A stretch of DNA of 64,000 bases from Escherichia coli (GTDB lineage: Bacteria; Pseudomonadota; Gammaproteobacteria; Enterobacterales; Enterobacteriaceae). Below, piece after piece: positions 6,001 through 20,797 of the stretch. The DNA is taken from assembly GCF_024502345.1 (NCBI RefSeq), contig NZ_JALDNN010000002.1; one strand, 5' to 3'. The translations under genes and the position numbers were made by a program. The notes below the pieces were generated by a model. That model worked only from the letters and a program-made list of their open reading frames with translations. It made no database searches and was not told where the DNA came from. Numbering within the stretch: the stretch's first letter is position 1; the number at the start of each line of letters is the position of its first letter.

Positions 6001-7195
<1,195 letters not shown>

Positions 7196-8984: not shown

Positions 8985-10042
<1,058 letters not shown>

Positions 10043-10778: not shown

Positions 10779-12217
10779 ACTTTCAGGGCGCGTGGTTCCT
10801 TTTAAACACCAGCTCTGTATCTCTTTTAAAGATCCTTTAATAAATTCTGTAAACCCATAACCTGTTCATCGCCTGCATTGTGGACCGGCTCGGGAGAATG
10901 CCCGCCCTTGCAGCGACCAGACGGTCGCGCCGGTTCGGCAACACCAGAGAGAGCTCCCATCGCTTCGCGACGGGCCCCGACCGGAGAACCAAATTAGTTA
11001 CAGCATTCATAAGGAAGCTCATCATAAAACCAGCGCCGGTTTGCCGGCCAGGTGCCCCTCCCCACCACTGAAAAGCGCCGCCGCCCCCGGCCGAAGGCCG
11101 GGGAACACCATCGCTTATAATGATGGGTGTTGTAACTAACCTTCTTCATCGCTTTAGGTGGAGCTGCGGTGAGTTTCTGAGTACACGCTCGTAAGCGGCC
11201 CTGACGGCCCGCTAACGCGGAGATACGCCACGGCTACGGCTTACGCCTTGCCGTGACCACTCCGACCGCGTACAGAGGCATCTGAGACGTTTTTAGCGGG
11301 TATAGCTTTGCAGCTACCGTGTTAAGTTCCCTGGTGTCGCTGAGATAGTTGATGAACATCCCCCTAAGCGTCAGCAGCAAGCTGCCGCCGCTAAGGCCCC
11401 GGAAATCACGCCCTTTACGTCGTAAACGCCGTAAAGCCCGCTCACCGGGGTTAAAAGGGATTACTTTGACTTCTTCATTGCTGTTAGCGGGTTAAGGCTA
11501 ATCAGGGCAGGGGGTAGGGTGGCAGAATTTATAGCCCGGCAACCGGCTACGCCGGGCTTTCGGCGCCATTTGACTCCACAGACACATGTAACCTCATCTG
11601 GCGCCTCCATGCCGCTGACGCGGCATCCAGAAGTTTCCCGATGCTGTAAGTCTTAACGTCTGCTTTGTGCCAAAAGCGGAAGTAACTAACAGCAGTCTGT
11701 GTGAAAATACGGGGAGCAGGTTAAAGGTGCCTGGCCGTTGTTGAGGTGGAGTTGCAGGGCCGCACCTTCTATATCCTAGAAGTCGATACATCTGACGGTG
11801 TTTGTTCTCTATCAACTTTGCTATTACGGCTGAAGTCGCCTCTGGATTGGCCCAAGCAGCTTACGCTGTTGGCAGAAGAGTTAACCCAGAAATCACTGCA
11901 CTGGCCAAATCAGCGGTTAAAAATGCTCTGCGGCAAGGATGGCTATTCCGGCATTCCTCACCCGCAGACCAAATCCGTGGATAAGGGCAAGTTGCATGAG
12001 GAGTCGATAGAGCACTGGGCGGCAAGATTTCACAGTTGGATGACATCAATCTAACGTATTGAAGAGATTTAATACAAGACGAACTATGTCTACGTTTGAG
12101 GCTTTATATCTTGTTGTTATAGTAAAGATGGTGCATGATTGTAATCAATTTGATGATAACAATAGCGCTATATGGATCACATCACTACATTCTCCTTTCA
12201 TTTCATAGCTGCGGCAC
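10779..12217. other. ORF-poor, GC-rich, hairpin-rich 1.4 kb segment upstream of the WYL regulator gene
   Basis: No ORF over 102 aa on either strand; multiple GC-rich stem-loops (for example AGCCCGGCAACCGGCTACGCCGGGCT). Confidence 0.5.
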
Positions 12218-13126
12218 ATGATTAGTTCTCCCTCTAAACGGGTCGAGGATTTGAGCCTTGCCCAGCGCGAGCGGCTGGCCTACATCGACTTCCAGCTCTA
12301 CTTCTTCGGTGATATTGGGCGCCCAGACCTGATTGAGCGCTTCGGTGTGGCGCCGGCAGGGGCAACTCGCGATCTGGCTCTTTACCGGGAAATCGCACCG
12401 CAGAACATTGAATTCGATGGTAGCAACAAGATCTACCGCATAGGCAAGGCGTTTGTTCCAATTTTCGAGCACTCGACGCAACGTGTTTTGTCGACATTCG
12501 CGCTTGGGTTTGGAGATGGTGTGAACGTCGACTCGCGGCCGCTGCTGCCATGCGAGTCTCCAGTGGCTTTGAGCTGCCCACGGATGGATGTGCTGGCCCC
12601 AATCTGCCGGGCTATCCACGCCAAGCGGCCAGTAGCCATCCGCTACCACTCAATGAGCAGCGGTGAGACCGAGCGGATCATTGTGCCCTTTGCGCTGGTC
12701 GATACCGGCCTGCGCTGGCACGTCCGAGCTTTTGATCGCAAGAGTGGCGAGTTCCGCGACTTCGTTGTCACCCGCATTGAAGCGCCTATCCTGCTTGATG
12801 AAGAACCCAAGGCTAACGAGCGTTCGGACAACGACATTCAGTGGACTCGGATCGTGGAGTTGGACTTAGTGCCTCATCCGCGCTTTGCGCGTCCCGAGGT
12901 CATCAAGATGGACTACGGGATGACCAACGGGTCGATCAAGATGCGCGTGCGGGCTGCTGTTGCGGGCTACATGCTGCTGCACTGGAGCGTGGACTGCTCG
13001 CCTGACCATCGCCTCAAAGAAGAACAGTATCGCCTATGGCTTAGCGATCCGCTGGTGCTGTACGGAGTCGAGAGCGCCAAGCTGGCTCCAGGATACCAAG
13101 CCCTGAGCAGTTCCAAGGGATCATAG
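12218..13126 (+). CDS. WYL-domain transcriptional regulator, BrxR/CapW-like (wHTH + WYL + C-terminal extension)
   Basis: N-terminal wHTH-like segment LAQRERLAYIDFQLYFFGDIGRPDLIERFGV; WYL-like core VAIRYHSMSSGETERIIVPFALVDTGLRWHVRAFDRKSGEFRDFVVTRI; 302 aa, typical BrxR size. Confidence 0.7.
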   Translation: MISSPSKRVEDLSLAQRERLAYIDFQLYFFGDIGRPDLIERFGVAPAGATRDLALYREIAPQNIEFDGSNKIYRIGKAFVPIFEHSTQRVLSTFALGFGDGVNVDSRPLLPCESPVALSCPRMDVLAPICRAIHAKRPVAIRYHSMSSGETERIIVPFALVDTGLRWHVRAFDRKSGEFRDFVVTRIEAPILLDEEPKANERSDNDIQWTRIVELDLVPHPRFARPEVIKMDYGMTNGSIKMRVRAAVAGYMLLHWSVDCSPDHRLKEEQYRLWLSDPLVLYGVESAKLAPGYQALSSSKGS

Positions 13127-13140
13127 GAAAGAGGAAAACA

Positions 13141-14871
13141 ATGGCCAAGACACTTGAAGCCCACGACAAACTGATCCGCGAGATCTTCGAAGGCAGCTAC
13201 CAGTTCGAGATTCCGGACTACCAGCGTCCCTATGCCTGGACAACCGAGCAGGCCACAGAGCTGTTCGATGATCTGCACTCGGCGATGCTGGATGCGCGTG
13301 TCTCCGGTGCAACCAGCCAATACTTCCTCGGCAGTATCGTTCTGATCAAGAACGACCGAGAGCCCAAATCGTCGGTGGTCGATGGCCAGCAGCGCCTGTC
13401 GACGCTGACGATGCTGTTTGCAGTGCTGCGCGAGGCCATGCCGCACGCAGCCGACGACATCACCGATTTCCTCTACAAGAAGGGCAAGGTCAGCCTCGGC
13501 GAGAAAAATGAATACCGCCTGACCGCCCGCGAGGAGGATGTCGACTTCTTTCGCACCAACATTCAAGAGCCGGGCGGCATCGCACAGTTGGTCACTAGCA
13601 CCGACAAGCTGGAAGACAGCCGACTTCGATACCGCGAAAACGCCATGCTGCTGCTTGCCAAAGCCAAGGCGCTACCGCCCGCCGATCTGATCGCACTGTG
13701 GCAGTTCCTGGCCAACAACTGCTCGCTGGTTGTTATCTCCACGCCCGATCTTGAAGCTGCCTACCGCATCTTTTCCGTGCTCAATAATCGGGGGCTTGAC
13801 CTCGCGCCTATCGACATCATCAAGGCGCAGGTTCTGGGCCTAATCCGCACCACGGCAGGCGACATTAAGAGTCGGGTCTATGCCAAGGAGTGGAGTCGCA
13901 TCGAAACCTCACTGGGCCGTGACGCCTTTGGTGATCTGTTCGGTCACATCCGTAGCATCTATGCGAAGAAGAAGCAGAAGTACATTTTGGTCAAGGAATT
14001 CCAAGAGCACGTCACCGAGTACAATAACCCTATCGCCCTGATCGACTCCGTCATCAAACCTTATGCAGAAGTATGGGACTTCGTGCGCGACGCTGACTTT
14101 GAGGCGACCGAGCACGCCGAGACGATCAACGAGCACCTGTTCTGGCTCAACCGCGTGGACTTTAAGGACTGGGTACCCCCGGCACTGGTGTATTTCAAGC
14201 GATTCCGGCAAAAACCAAAATTGCTCGCAGAATTCTTCGAATCACTAGAACGCCTTACCTATTTCATGTTGGTCACAAAGGTGGGTATCAACGAACGCAT
14301 CGAAACCTACGCTGCGCTCATTAAAGACATCGAGTCCACAGCCTTCGACGGCGCTCTAGTCACCTTGGGCACTCTGGCACTTACAGACAAACAGAAGCGA
14401 GATTTCGTGGCTGCTCTCGACGGAGATATCTACCGCAACCTGCCCAAAGCCCGCATGGCACTGGTTTTACGTCTCGAATCTCTGGTTCGAGCCCCTGGAG
14501 TGCAGCTGCAAAACGCCGTGTCGCTGGAGCATGTGCTGCCGCAAAACCCGCCTGACGGTTCGGACTGGATCAAGTGGTTCCCGGATGAAGACGAGCGAGA
14601 TTGCTGGACGCACCGTTTGGCCAATCTAGTTCCGCTGGATAGGAACAAGAACTCATCTGCCAGCAACTACGACTTTTCCAAGAAGAAGGATGCCTACTTC
14701 AGGGGTAAGGGCAAGGCGTCTCCCTTCGTGCTAACGCAGGAAGTTAGGTCAGAAAACGAGTGGACACCCAACCTTCTGGCTGAGCGTCAGAAACGCCTGA
14801 TGGGAGAACTCAAAAATCATTGGAAACTCGCCGTCACCACAGACAATGCCAGCGCCTCAGCGGCGAATTAA
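13141..14871 (+). CDS. GmrSD-family (DUF262 + DUF1524) putative type IV, modification-dependent restriction endonuclease, BrxU/SspE-like
   Basis: N-terminal DUF262 motifs (EIPDYQRPYAWT, DGQQRLST); C-terminal DUF1524 His-Me finger-like motifs (VSLEHVLPQNP, HRLANLVPLDRNKN); 15 bp downstream of the WYL regulator. Confidence 0.75.
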   Translation: MAKTLEAHDKLIREIFEGSYQFEIPDYQRPYAWTTEQATELFDDLHSAMLDARVSGATSQYFLGSIVLIKNDREPKSSVVDGQQRLSTLTMLFAVLREAMPHAADDITDFLYKKGKVSLGEKNEYRLTAREEDVDFFRTNIQEPGGIAQLVTSTDKLEDSRLRYRENAMLLLAKAKALPPADLIALWQFLANNCSLVVISTPDLEAAYRIFSVLNNRGLDLAPIDIIKAQVLGLIRTTAGDIKSRVYAKEWSRIETSLGRDAFGDLFGHIRSIYAKKKQKYILVKEFQEHVTEYNNPIALIDSVIKPYAEVWDFVRDADFEATEHAETINEHLFWLNRVDFKDWVPPALVYFKRFRQKPKLLAEFFESLERLTYFMLVTKVGINERIETYAALIKDIESTAFDGALVTLGTLALTDKQKRDFVAALDGDIYRNLPKARMALVLRLESLVRAPGVQLQNAVSLEHVLPQNPPDGSDWIKWFPDEDERDCWTHRLANLVPLDRNKNSSASNYDFSKKKDAYFRGKGKASPFVLTQEVRSENEWTPNLLAERQKRLMGELKNHWKLAVTTDNASASAAN

Positions 14872-14882
14872 GGTAAGTATCG

Positions 14883-15598
14883 ATGCATAAGAAGCAACAA
14901 CAAGACCAAAGCCAGATCAAGTGGATTTCCGATTTCATCTGGAACATTGCCGATGACCGCTTGCGCGACGTCTATGTACGCGGCAAGTACCGCGACGTGA
15001 TCCTGCCCTTCACCGTACTGCGACGGCTTGATGCCGTGCTAGAGACGACGAAGGATGCTGTGCTAGAGCGCAAGAAGCTCCTTGATGCCCATAAAGTGGT
15101 CGAGCAGGACGGCGCTCTGCGTATGGCAGCAGGCCAAGCCTTCTACAACGTATCGGAATTTACTCTGGCCAAGCTCAAGGCCAGTGCCGCAGGCCAGCGG
15201 CTGCGTGATGATTTTATTGCGTATCTGGATGGATTTTCGCCCAACGTCCAGGAAATCCTCACCAAGTTCAGTTTTCACAACCAGATCCAGAAGTTGGTGG
15301 ATTCGCACGTTCTGGGCTATTTGATAGAAGATTTCCTCGACCCGGAGGTCAATCTCTCGCCGTTGCCGGTTAAGGATGCCGACGGCCGCATCAAGCTGCC
15401 GCCGCTGGACAACCATGGCATGGGCACGGTGTTCGAAGAGCTGATCCGCCGCTTTAACGAAGACAACAACGAAGAGGCTGGTGAGCACTTCACACCGCGC
15501 GATGTGGTGAAGCTCATGGCCAAGCTACTGTTCCTGCCTGTGGCCGAGCGCATCGAGTCTAGCACCTATTCGCTCTACGATGGCTCCTGTGGCACAGG
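14883..15598 (+). pseudogene. hsdM: Type I restriction-modification methyltransferase HsdM, N-terminal about 238 codons only, truncated by IS911
   Basis: HsdM_N-like start and N6-methylase motif GEHFTPRDVVKLM; reading frame runs into the IS911 terminus at 15599. Confidence 0.7.
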
Positions 15599-15933
15599 TG
15601 AAGTGGCACACTGAATTTGGCCACCTGAACAGAGGTGATATGCTCACCTCAGAACAACACAGGTGCTCCAATGAAAAAAAGAAATTTCAGCGCAGAGTTT
15701 AAACGCGAATCCGCTCAACTGGTTGTTGACCAGAACTACACGGTGGCAGATGCCGCCAAAGCTATGGATGTTGGCCTTTCCACAATGACAAGATGGGTCA
15801 AACAACTGCGTGATGAGCGTCAGGGCAAAACACCAAAAGCCTCTCCGATAACACCAGAACAAATCGAAATACGTGAGCTGAGGAAAAAGCTACAACGCAT
15901 TGAAATGGAGAATGAAATATTAAAAAAGGCTAC
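15599..15933 (+). mobile_element. IS911 (IS3 family) left end fragment with orfA truncated at its frameshift site
   Basis: IRL TGAAGTGGCACACTGAATTTGG; Orf[24 protein letters not shown]... ends at ..EILKKA where IS30 begins. Confidence 0.85.
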
Positions 15934-17154
15934 TGTAGATTCAATTGGTCAACGCAACAGTTATGTGAAAACATGGGGTTGCGGAGGTTTTTTGAATGAG
16001 ACGAACATTTACAGCAGAGGAAAAAGCCTCTGTTTTTGAACTATGGAAGAACGGAACAGGCTTCAGTGAAATAGCGAATATCCTGGGTTCAAAACCCGGA
16101 ACGATCTTCACTATGTTAAGGGATACTGGCGGCATAAAACCCCATGAGCGTAAGCGGGCTGTAGCTCACCTGACACTGTCTGAGCGCGAGGAGATACGAG
16201 CTGGTTTGTCAGCCAAAATGAGCATTCGTGCGATAGCTACTGCGCTGAATCGCAGTCCTTCGACGATCTCACGTGAAGTTCAGCGTAATCGGGGCAGACG
16301 CTATTACAAAGCTGTTGATGCTAATAACCGAGCCAACAGAATGGCGAAAAGGCCAAAACCGTGCTTACTGGATCAAAATTTACCATTGCGAAAGCTTGTT
16401 CTGGAAAAGCTGGAGATGAAATGGTCTCCAGAGCAAATATCAGGATGGTTAAGGCGAACAAAACCACGTCAAAAAACGCTGCGAATATCACCTGAGACAA
16501 TTTATAAAACGCTGTACTTTCGTAGCCGTGAAGCGCTACACCACCTGAATATACAGCATCTGCGACGGTCGCATAGCCTTCGCCATGGCAGGCGTCATAC
16601 CCGCAAAGGCGAAAGAGGTACGATTAACATAGTGAACGGAACACCAATTCACGAACGTTCCCGAAATATCGATAACAGACGCTCTCTGGGGCATTGGGAG
16701 GGCGATTTAGTCTCAGGTACAAAAAACTCTCATATAGCCACACTTGTAGACCGAAAATCACGTTATACGATCATCCTTAGACTCAGGGGCAAAGATTCTG
16801 TCTCAGTAAATCAGGCTCTTACCGACAAATTCCTGAGTTTACCGTCAGAACTCAGAAAATCACTGACATGGGACAGAGGAATGGAACTGGCCAGACATCT
16901 AGAATTTACTGTCAGCACCGGCGTTAAAGTTTACTTCTGCGATCCTCAGAGTCCTTGGCAGCGGGGAACAAATGAGAACACAAATGGGCTAATTCGGCAG
17001 TACTTTCCTAAAAAGACATGTCTTGCCCAATATACTCAACATGAACTAGATCTGGTTGCTGCTCAGCTAAACAACAGACCGAGAAAGACACTGAAGTTCA
17101 AAACACCGAAAGAGATAATTGAAAGGGGTGTTGCATTGACAGATTGAATCTACA
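15934..17154 (+). mobile_element. IS30 (1221 bp, complete)
   Basis: Terminal TGTAGATTCAATTGGTCAACG ... CATTGACAGATTGAATCTACA; 383-aa IS30 transposase. Confidence 0.92.
15996..17147 (+). CDS. IS30 transposase
   Basis: 383-aa ORF with HTH N-terminus and DDE core, matches IS30 Tnp. Confidence 0.92.
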
Positions 17155-17468
17155 GCGGCTTTTTTTAATATGTCCCGTTCGTCGGTAACCCGTTTCAGCT
17201 CTTTCTGGAGACGGCGGATCTCGGCCTGAGCATCTGACTGTTCTTTATTAGTGGAAGAATCCGGACCGTACTTCTTTATCCAGGCATAAAGGCTGTGGGT
17301 GGTGATATCGAGACGTGTTGCAACGCTGGAAACAGAATAACCGCGATCAACAACCTGTTTGACTGCTTCAGTTTTAAACTCTTCGGGATAACGCTTACCG
17401 CTCATGGGCACCTCTCTTTAAGCCATCTTAAATGACTCTGAGGTGTCTGTTAAACCCGTGGCGATTCA
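17155..17468 (-). mobile_element. IS3-family element fragment (left end plus 5' part of orfA)
   Basis: OrfA MSGKRYPEEFKTEAVKQVVDRGYSVSSVATRLDITTHSLYAWIKKYG... truncated at ..DILKKA by IS30; terminus TGAATCGCCACGGG. Confidence 0.75.

Positions 17469-19601: not shown

Positions 19602-20797
<1,196 letters not shown>

Follow-up and report, generated by a model that had tools for sequence, protein, structure and literature searches.

The IS30 system of Olasz, Kiss and co-workers is characterized, in the accessible parts of that literature, by a nearly palindromic target cut with a 2-bp stagger and by rearrangements that leave a single IS30 between an old and a new flank. According to the accessible sections of PMC9333248, IR-IR junctions of IS30 target hot spots with this 2-bp stagger, and the products are deletions, inversions and cointegrates. 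The same sections describe a natural copy inside an IS3-family element, namely IS911A::IS30A of E. coli K-12 (insN interrupted; CP4-6 prophage, 270206-272190), and the tsh/hbp-linked IS911-IS30 of ColV-type IncF plasmids has also been reported (Otto et al. 1998, PMC2212542).

We analyzed a 64-kb stretch of E. coli DNA (64,000 nucleotides, referred to as the window) that contains a related block of ~1.87 kb at 15599-17468, in which a complete IS30 is flanked by the 5′ parts of two different IS3-family elements (Table 1). The initial annotation had recognized an IS911 orfA ending ..EILKKA on the left and, on the opposite strand, an IS3-family orfA ending ..DILKKA on the right, both reading towards IS30, and its coordinates and parts are correct. 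The block consists of two hot-spot halves joined through IS30, which is a known kind of structure and an ordinary mobile-element scar. Very probably, it is a recombinant joint made from the two halves of the preferred natural target of IS30. A single IS30 thus lies between two flanks, as in the rearrangements of the Olasz and Kiss system; the experimental hot spots in the accessible part of that work are located in phage lambda (LHS), whereas the target in the window is the frameshift region of IS3-family elements.

Table 1. Features of the IS911′-IS30-ISX′ block and its left-hand context, in window coordinates.
Feature	Position	Strand	Remarks
hsdM-like 5′ part, type I restriction-modification methylase	14883..15598	+	truncated by IS911 left end; context, outside the IS cluster
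IS911 5′ fragment, 335 bp	15599..15933	+	left inverted repeat, orfA′ from 15671; IS911-derived part ends ...EILKKA at 15933
IS911 A-AAA-AAG slippery heptamer	15922..15928	+	intact; 5 nt upstream of IS30 junction; direct reading of the sequence
AC dinucleotide at IS30 left end	15932..15933	+	native IS911 dinucleotide, duplicated in simple IS911::IS30 insertions
IS30, complete, 1221 bp	15934..17154	+	runs TGTAGATTCAATTGG to CAGATTGAATCTACA
IS30 transposase gene, 383 aa, intact	15996..17147	+	PGAP name: IS30-like element IS30 family transposase
GC dinucleotide at IS30 right end	17155..17156	.	native ISX dinucleotide, duplicated in simple ISX::IS30 insertions
ISX 5′ fragment, 314 bp of 1229-bp IS3-family element	17155..17468	-	left inverted repeat at 17468, orfA′ from 17406; ends ...DILKKA
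ISX slippery run (A7G on minus strand)	17159..17166	-	intact; adjoins junction; direct reading of the sequence

The K-12 chromosome provides the closest counterparts. The left junction of IS911A::IS30A is identical to that of the window and has the same relative orientation; however, AC borders IS30 at either end there, followed by the 3′ part of IS911, where the window has the inverted ISX 5′ part, and IS911A differs from the IS911 fragment of the window at 30/335 nt. Beside yagB, the IS30B-ISX joint of K-12 shows the right junction as in the window (IS30 right end, GC, inverted 314-bp ISX 5′ fragment). Strain C600 has the whole architecture, IS911A 5′ - IS30 - ISX, but the outer flanks in C600 and K-12 are perR and yagB on the chromosome, instead of hsdM′ and an Rpn/zinc-finger plasmid backbone, and their block has another IS911 variant and an ISX that differs at 5/314 nt. 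In the KpLE2 region of K-12, IS911B 5′ - IS30D - IS600 5′ is likewise head-to-head with each element broken at the homologous nucleotide, although the partner is IS600 and IS30 has the other orientation relative to IS911; this block, which lies within a single IS911 copy, looks like a short local deletion. In tsh/ColV plasmids, the IS911 5′ fragment and IS30 are virtually identical to those of the window (0-3 differences in the IS911 fragment), but the left neighbour is tsh rather than hsdM, and most of these plasmids have, to the right of IS30, an inverted 5′ part from a third IS3-family element, such that a perfect 17-bp palindrome surrounds IS30. The whole three-part structure IS911 5′-IS30-ISX is present in 13 complete E. 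coli records (six chromosomes and seven plasmids).

The central element is a genuine IS30. It shows 2 mismatches to K-12 IS30A, identity to the IS30 copies at four loci (L002, L012, L017 and L018), and the expected size (~1221 bp) and 26-bp imperfect terminal inverted repeats (TGTAGATTCAAT...). Its 383-aa product, found as an exact protein in 46003 blocks of the collection index, is a single DDE transposase with an N-terminal helix-turn-helix and an rve catalytic domain (precomputed Pfam matches HTH_38 and rve), as is typical of the IS30 family. Yet this copy is not a simple insertion, since AC on its left differs from GC on its right and a 2-bp direct target duplication is thus absent. Neither an IS30-flanked composite transposon nor an (IS30)2 dimer was found, there being one IS30 in the 64 kb and no IR-IR junction (IRR-2 bp-IRL). 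The IS911 fragment, whose IRL (TGAAGTGGCACAC...) begins at 15599, has the same length and breakpoint as the annotated K-12 IS911A fragment (270206-270540), is 335/335 identical to L020 and shows 3 differences from the tsh-plasmid copies. It comprises the left repeat, orfA′ and the heptamer, and neither IS911 orfB nor the right repeat occurs in the 64-kb window; it is therefore a fragment and not an element. The ISX fragment matches a full-length copy in NZ_LT174529 at 313/314 nt and the element annotated ISX/insX in E. coli K-12 at 309/314 nt; a full-length 1229-bp ISX with both ends and orfAB is absent from the window, which holds 314 bp of the 5′ end only. Elsewhere in the window, at 48876-48925, lies a 50-bp remnant that resembles the 3′ end of ISX. 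Identity between the two OrfA fragments is 32% (28/87), lower than the approximately 40% first estimated. The IS911′-IS30-ISX′ block is inert; IS30 is intact, but both IS3-family elements are deprived of orfB and right ends.

Outside the block, the intact hsdM genes of pWL374-mcr-10 and of some 75 further plasmids are homologous only up to window position 15598-15600. In K. michiganensis pC52_002, ISX runs uninterrupted through the breakpoint and has the right-hand flank of the window. The unequal dinucleotides, each native to its own element, and the uninterrupted ISX of pC52_002 agree with the initial annotation, which had read AC and GC at the two ends and argued against a simple insertion with target duplication. 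The neighbourhoods to the left and right come from different plasmid backgrounds. The block marks the joint of these two backgrounds in an mcr-10 plasmid: a Tn7-like/type I restriction-modification segment meets an IncF backbone that bears ISX. Relative to pWL374-mcr-10, hsdM′ and the mcr-10 segment are inverted; this was rejected as evidence for a large inversion, because a closer relative, pI9455333_MCR10, already lacks hsdRSM beside mcr-10, and IS26 and IS1 copies intervene.

The two IS3-family fragments break off at homologous nucleotides, each 5 nt beyond TTA-AAA-AAR. The ISX break (ATA TTA AAA AAA GCC GC|) is homologous in position to that of IS911, and the native ISX element reads AAAAAAAGCCGCGGCGTAC across it. 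Breakage at the homologous nucleotide, as first proposed, is thus upheld, but the breaks are 5 nt 3′ of the slippery heptamer and not inside it. The same nucleotide is used by IS30 elsewhere. At the IS911 breakpoint of the window, the simple insertion IS911A::IS30A of K-12 reads GGCTAC|IS30|ACCGCGC (AC/AC), and AC/AC is also found in L026, L056 and L064, while IS911::IS30 in the inverted orientation carries GT/GT (L014, L018 and L143). Simple ISX::IS30 insertions with GC/GC at the ISX breakpoint occur in L012 and L105, and IS600-like::IS30 insertions with AC/AC at the homologous nucleotide at 8 loci. The partners at this site comprise IS911, ISX, IS600 and further IS3-family relatives. In a metagenome scan, 114/148 IS30 ends (77%) among the matches listed abut the IS3-family site, a count in which some copies may share descent and some contigs may be chimeric assemblies across the 1.2-kb repeat. 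Of 10 distinct genomic contexts in which the IS30 transposase occurs, 9 are at this site. A contig scan for the IS30 right end gave 5 loci, used as extra examples only. IS30 therefore occupies exactly the same position repeatedly and in both orientations, as a hot spot requires. The two breakpoints do not coincide by chance: dozens of independent contigs, as well as intact IS911, ISX and IS600-like elements, have their IS30 junction at this very nucleotide. The landing spot between the IS3-family halves is the favourite natural site of IS30. The target preference that the initial annotation had suggested, and its expectation of other copies with IS30 at the same site in each element, are both borne out by these insertions.

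A 24-bp IS30 target consensus was reportedly published by Olasz in 1998. As a stand-in, we used an empirical half-site weight matrix built from 32 non-IS3 IS30 half-sites only. With this matrix the IS911 5′ half scores 8.59 bits (top 0.012% of window 16-mers) and the ISX 5′ half 7.18 bits (top 0.049%), so that both junctions rank in the top 0.05% and match this empirical target consensus. The IS600-like half reaches 8.94 bits, and the 3′ halves are weaker (2.5-6.6 bits). Judged by the matrix, each flank is an optimal half-site, and together the two are nearly palindromic. The lambda hot spot LHS, which we placed by guess at 33290 from the plasmid description in the accessible part of PMC9333248, has a poor score.

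In a sample of 40 complete IS30 copies, 23 have one 5′-type and one 3′-type flank (mostly simple insertions), 9 have one IS3-type and one non-IS3 flank, 4 have 5′-5′ flanks, 2 have 3′-3′ flanks and 2 have two non-IS3 flanks. Head-to-head joining as a systematic outcome was rejected on the basis of the 4/40 copies. Joints of an IS911-type 5′ part with an ISX 5′ part nevertheless recur with different variants and outer flanks (window, L001, L025 and C600).

The formation of the block may be described in three steps. IS30 very strongly prefers one nucleotide of IS3-family orfA, 5 nt 3′ of TTA-AAA-AAR, as seen directly in the insertions above. On the upstream side of the 2-bp staggered cut, T-T-A-A-A-A-A-(A)-G-S forms a near-optimal half-site, whose A-tract comes from the slippery run required by these elements for frameshifting. 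Judging from the relatives, IS30 would then have entered an IS911 copy inserted into hsdM, leaving the native AC, and a resident ISX would have provided the second hot-spot junction, with its native GC, either as a free target or with an IS30 already in place. An hsdM gene carrying a complete IS911::IS30 is a hypothetical intermediate, because the hsdM::IS911 junction has no counterpart in PLSDB, where no record has IS911 at that hsdM position. Finally, a single IS30 would have come to link the 5′ half of IS911 to the inverted 5′ half of ISX, with the 3′ parts of both elements and the intervening DNA lost or moved beyond the window.

For the joining itself, we lean slightly towards an IR-IR junction (dimer or circle), formed from the IS30 in IS911, that attacked the ISX hot spot and gave a deletion, an inversion or a replicon fusion; we consider the chances of this route to be about even. 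These three outcomes are indistinguishable, because a second IS30, the IS911 3′ part and the reciprocal junction are all absent from the 64-kb window, as is the ISX 3′ part save for the 50-bp remnant. A plausible competitor, to which we give somewhat below an even chance, is that two ordinary IS30 insertions, one in IS911 along orfA and one in ISX in the opposite direction, were recombined by RecA over the 1.2-kb IS30, with the transposase idle in the joining. Both flanks keep their exact native dinucleotides, AC and GC, ISX::IS30 is common in both orientations, and C600 lacks the DNA that separates IS30A from the 181-bp IS30B remnant in MG1655, a loss that yields the same IS911-IS30-ISX block; this difference is most simply read as RecA recombination between two IS30 copies. 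However, this requires two IS30 copies in one cell simultaneously, while the window holds one, and the mixed-flank copies (9) outnumber the required partners with two non-IS3 flanks (2), an excess that fits a one-step IS30-driven rearrangement better and that metagenome chimeras may inflate. The initial proposal of two insertions joined by IS30 is supported as regards two hot-spot halves across IS30; "IS30-mediated" is about as likely as not, since RecA recombination gives the same product. Sister structures carry AC (L001 and L025) or GT (L027) on the ISX side, not the native GC, and this dinucleotide is not constant even among copies of one ISX sequence variant. The possibility that GCCGT is native to some ISX was rejected for that reason and because it is absent from 763 uninterrupted ISX copies. 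The non-native dinucleotides fit a carry-over of the 2-bp donor spacer, which favours attack by an IR-IR junction. The AC and GC of the window itself are predicted by both routes.

Three further explanations carry little weight. A simple insertion of IS30 into a pre-existing head-to-head IS911/ISX palindrome, an ideal symmetric target, would be in keeping with the near-palindromic flanks and with AC on both sides in L001 and L025, but it is close to refuted and has a negligible probability in our estimate: the window has AC versus GC without duplication, and no IS30-free head-to-head joint (AAAAAAGGCT-NN-GGCTTTTTTT) is present in PLSDB. Three apparent full-length PLSDB matches retain TCTACA from the IS30 right end and are thus deletion scars of the IS30-containing structure. 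To our knowledge, there is no IS30-independent way of joining two IS3-family elements at exactly this nucleotide. It is highly improbable that the block is a chimeric mobile unit with two inverted IS3-family left ends, moved whole by an IS3-family transposase in trans. Its termini are indeed two outward-facing IS3-family left inverted repeats, nearly identical to one another in the IS911/third-element version of the tsh plasmids, yet there is no target duplication (AGG left, TTC right), the two neighbourhoods differ in plasmid background, and the uninterrupted ISX at the same right-hand flank in pC52_002 implies that the right end of the block was in place before the joint formed. Split-target integration, in which each end of one IS30 intermediate captured a separate optimal half-site (IS911 and ISX), would necessarily make both fragments read towards IS30; it draws on the much higher scores of the 5′ halves relative to the 3′ halves and on the recurrence of head-to-head IS911-type/ISX 5′ joints. 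Such joints are not favoured overall, however (4/40, against 23 with 5′ and 3′ flanks and 2 tail-to-tail), and the accessible IS30 literature yielded no biochemical precedent, and we regard this mechanism as very unlikely.

For the window itself, a joint of two hot-spot halves is of little importance, being an inert scar. It is possible, although on balance doubtful, that IS30 uses the IS3-family frameshift window as a homing site, held constant because the target needs -1 frameshifting, with most natural copies residing inside other insertion sequences, disabling them and shuffling their halves, and with foreign junction dinucleotides as a record of prior residence. If this is true, an AC or GT beside ISX would tell where the incoming IS30 had resided before. 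The generalisations on the homing site and the dinucleotide record are not stated in the accessible literature; the Olasz 1998 paper on target specificity may already contain the first of them. The IS3-family frameshift site, as a proposed home for IS30, is multi-copy, harmless to the host and often on plasmids. In annotation, an IS30 beside a truncated IS3-family orfA ending ..ILKKA should be taken as the expected state and not as a coincidence, and mismatched IS30 flanks as a mark of an IS30-linked rearrangement or replicon fusion; the IS3-site bias and the dinucleotide carry-over would refine the reading of IS30-driven plasmid fusions from sequence. PGAP labels ISX, as well as the third and fifth IS3-family partners, just "IS3 family transposase".

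Our reading of the sequence bears out the composition and coordinates that the initial annotation gave for the block at 15599-17468, i.e. a 5' fragment of IS911, IS30 and an inverted 5' fragment of a second IS3-family element, here identified as ISX. The breaks fall at the homologous nucleotide of the two elements: in codons, IS911 ends ATA TTA AAA AAG GCT AC and ISX ends ATA TTA AAA AAA GCC GC, so that both orfA' are cut after base 2 of the codon next to I-L-K-K-A. The cut is not inside the slippery heptamer, where it had been placed, but 5 nt past TTA-AAA-AAR, and the OrfA fragments share 32% identity rather than about 40%.

Features of the block and of its surroundings in the window
Feature	Position	Strand	Remarks
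Segment left of the block	10781-15598		Tn7-like remnant (TnsE fragment), WYL-domain gene, DUF262 gene, type I methylase gene (its first 716 bp)
IS911 left inverted repeat	begins at 15599		TGAAGTGGCACACTGAATTTGGCC...; interrupts hsdM-like gene
Chimeric ORF (predicted)	15635-16039		134 aa; IS911 orfA' reading on into IS30 end; would encode a truncated OrfA-like regulator
IS911 orfA'	15671-15933	+	ends ...GGCTAC
IS911 A-AAA-AAG heptamer	15922-15928	+	intact
IS30	15934-17154	+	intact, 1221 bp; 2 mismatches vs K-12 IS30A
IS30 transposase	15996-17147	+	383 aa
Chimeric ORF (predicted)	17067-17411		114 aa; ISX orfA' reading on into IS30 end; would encode a truncated OrfA-like regulator
ISX 5' fragment	17155-17468	-	first 314 bp; left repeat TGAATCGCCACGGG... 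at 17468; orfA' ...DILKKA pointing to IS30
ISX-type remnant	48876-48925		50 bp, 96% identical to element positions 1164-1213, near its right end
mcr-10.1 module	50617-55377		colistin resistance; XerC-type recombinase, part of ISEc36
IS1, two copies	5075, 18971
IS26-like, at least four copies	21793, 56042, 59066, 63283
Other IS copies, among others	1655-2458, 6147-6950, 9239-10042, 19749-20729, 61336-62139

The window fragment is identical at 309 of 314 positions to ISX (insX), which adjoins yagB in E. coli K-12 MG1655. A full-length 1229-bp copy of this type on plasmid NZ_LT174529 reads ...ATATTAAAAAAAGCCGC/GGCGTACTTC... across the breakpoint, so the sequence of the window fragment is native right up to its end. 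In K. michiganensis pC52_002 the same element is unbroken at this point and has the window's right-hand flank, so ISX was present in the lineage before it was broken. Of the two flanking dinucleotides, confirmed as AC and GC, the first is native to IS911 and the second to ISX. The initial annotation was thus right that this is not a simple insertion; the window combines halves of two hot-spot junctions, one in IS911 and the other in ISX.

The proposed IS30 target preference is well supported. IS30A interrupts IS911A of K-12 MG1655 at exactly the same nucleotide with an AC duplication (GGCTAC-IS30-ACCGCGC), an interruption also described in PMC9333248. A look-up of sites encoding the window's IS30 transposase yielded ten distinct contexts. 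In nine of them IS30 occupies this position in a member of the IS3 family; they include ISX::IS30 with a GC duplication, IS600-like::IS30 with AC, IS911::IS30 with GT and IS30 inverted, two head-to-head joints (two 5' parts) and one tail-to-tail joint (two 3' parts). The tenth is a phage tail gene. IS911 and ISX are hence each found carrying IS30 here. Scanning metagenomes for the two ends of IS30 gave at least 120 loci, and 114 of 148 termini with flanks (77%) among the matches listed lie at the IS3-family site (68 beside a 5' half, 46 beside a 3' half, 34 elsewhere). The ISX 5' halves occur in at least 10 sequence variants and on both IS30 ends, which points to many separate insertion events. 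To judge from these sequences, most natural IS30 copies appear to reside within the frameshift window of elements of the IS3 family, a striking pattern.

A half-site matrix built from 32 distinct non-IS3 IS30 flanks, an empirical stand-in for the published 24-bp consensus, is informative at T(-13) A(-12) A(-11) A(-10), A/T at -8 and -7, G(-5) and C(-4). The 5' halves of IS911, ISX and the IS600-like element agree with every one of these positions and score 8.59, 7.18 and 8.94 bits (top 0.012%, 0.049% and 0.006% of window 16-mers on both strands), against a leave-one-out median of 2.8 bits for the training sites; the 3' halves are weaker (2.5-6.6 bits). TT followed by the slippery A-run thus itself makes up the core of a half-site that suits IS30 extremely well, and the K-12 ydbA::IS30C site (ending TTAATAAAGGTACT) is similar. 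At a C. freundii locus (L026, NZ_OW849083, 187-1407), IS30 is flanked by an ISX 3' part and, on the other side, by the 5' part of yet another IS3-like orfA; this half ends ...GAGTTTCTCAGGAAGCCGC and has no A-run, which shows that the A-tract is not an absolute requirement.

Hybrid-flank joints of IS30 are common. Among the matches listed, 40 complete IS30 copies have both flanks: 14 carry a 5' part on the left and a 3' part on the right, 9 the reverse, 4 are head-to-head, 2 tail-to-tail, 9 have one IS3-type and one non-IS3 flank, and 2 have two non-IS3 flanks. The first two classes, 23 copies together, consist largely of simple insertions whose dinucleotides match, but also include joints of different elements' halves, e.g. 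loci L067 and L068. At 4 of 40, head-to-head is one outcome of several and not the rule. The window block adds a further case to an architecture already in E. coli K-12 strains, where IS911B 5' - IS30D - IS600 5' is built alike; in MG1655 a 181-bp IS30B remnant is joined via GC to inverted ISX, and strain C600 has IS911A 5' - IS30 - GC - ISX between perR and yagB. The IS911-IS30 pair beside hbp/tsh has been on record since 1998 (PMC2212542); on tsh/ColV plasmids it is virtually identical to the window's, but there the 5' part of a third IS3-family element comes next, in inverted orientation, and a perfect 17-bp palindrome results. In NZ_CP062831 (L027) and five sister pig plasmids, IS2 lies inside the IS30 of an IS911-IS30-ISX block, nesting insertion sequences three levels deep.

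How was the joint formed? An assembly artefact is unlikely, as each of the two junctions is seen again in many complete genomes. The whole structure is found in 13 records from complete E. coli genomes (7 plasmids and 6 chromosomes), and at least one junction in 1039 of 5426 genomes. Movement of the block as one unit is rejected, since there is no target duplication (AGG vs TTC) and ISX was already resident in pC52_002. A pre-existing IS30-free IS911/ISX palindrome was not seen in PLSDB, where the only three records spanning an artificial IS911-ISX joint (CP088401.1 at 2520-2540, CP099107.1 and NZ_CP148376.1) read ...GGAGAATGAA-TCTACA-GCGGCTTTTTTTT... and retain an IS30 end. They are deletions at the microhomology GAATGAA/TTGAAT that removed 14 nt of IS911 along with IS30 except 6 nt of its right end, and their joint is a footprint of the three-part structure.

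Two routes would give exactly the window's product. According to PMC9333248, IS30 moves by copy-out-paste-in: its ends, abutted as an IR-IR junction around a 2-bp spacer, attack hot spots, where the cut is staggered by 2 bp, and the products are insertions, deletions, inversions or cointegrates. Such a junction from IS30 in IS911 could have attacked the ISX hot spot, a route to which we give about an even chance. RecA recombination of an IS30 copy in IS911 with one of opposite orientation in ISX is a serious contender, if short of even: C600 equals MG1655 (270-281 kb) minus the roughly 9.4 kb that separate IS30A from the IS30B remnant (IS911A 3' part, eyeA, ykfC, IS5A, mmuPM, afuCB' and IS1B), most simply a homologous deletion. 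Any other route is improbable. The transposition and RecA routes alike lead to AC and GC, and the window does not tell them apart; the initial interpretation stands, save that its joining step may be the work of either transposase or RecA.

Related junctions are informative about transposition. At IS30-ISX junctions in L001, L025, L027, L044, L115, L124 and L140 the 2 bp are GC, AC or GT and ISX is constant beyond; L001 and L025 have AC, L027 has GT, and all three dinucleotides turn up within one ISX sequence variant. GCCGT occurs in 0 of 763 uninterrupted ISX copies in PLSDB. The foreign dinucleotides (AC, GT) are those of IS911-type donor sites, which suggests that the 2-bp spacer of the donor is carried over at IS30 integration: it would sometimes be ligated in beside ISX. 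L044, with GC on one side and AC on the other, would fit one daughter of such a heteroduplex. We infer that these sister structures bear the mark of IS30 having transposed into ISX.

The window is an IS-rich mcr-10 plasmid mosaic. The TnsE/WYL/DUF262/hsdM' segment left of the block is as in Enterobacter and Klebsiella IncF plasmids; hsdS and hsdR, the next genes in relatives, are absent from the 64-kb window, and no PLSDB record has IS911 within hsdM. To the right lie 1.25 kb of pC52_002-like backbone, then IS1 and a 37-kb segment close to pI9455333_MCR10. The joint may thus mark the fusion of two plasmid backgrounds. Its reciprocal product is not in the window; the ISX-type remnant, wedged between two other transposase genes, is not that product. 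The mcr-10.1 module matches pWL374-mcr-10 at 99.9% identity; with respect to the hsdM segment it is inverted. The window as a whole is a patchwork of segments with insertion-sequence borders, and its IS load is very high, with several IS5-family (IS903B/ISKpn26-like) copies and IS110-family genes.
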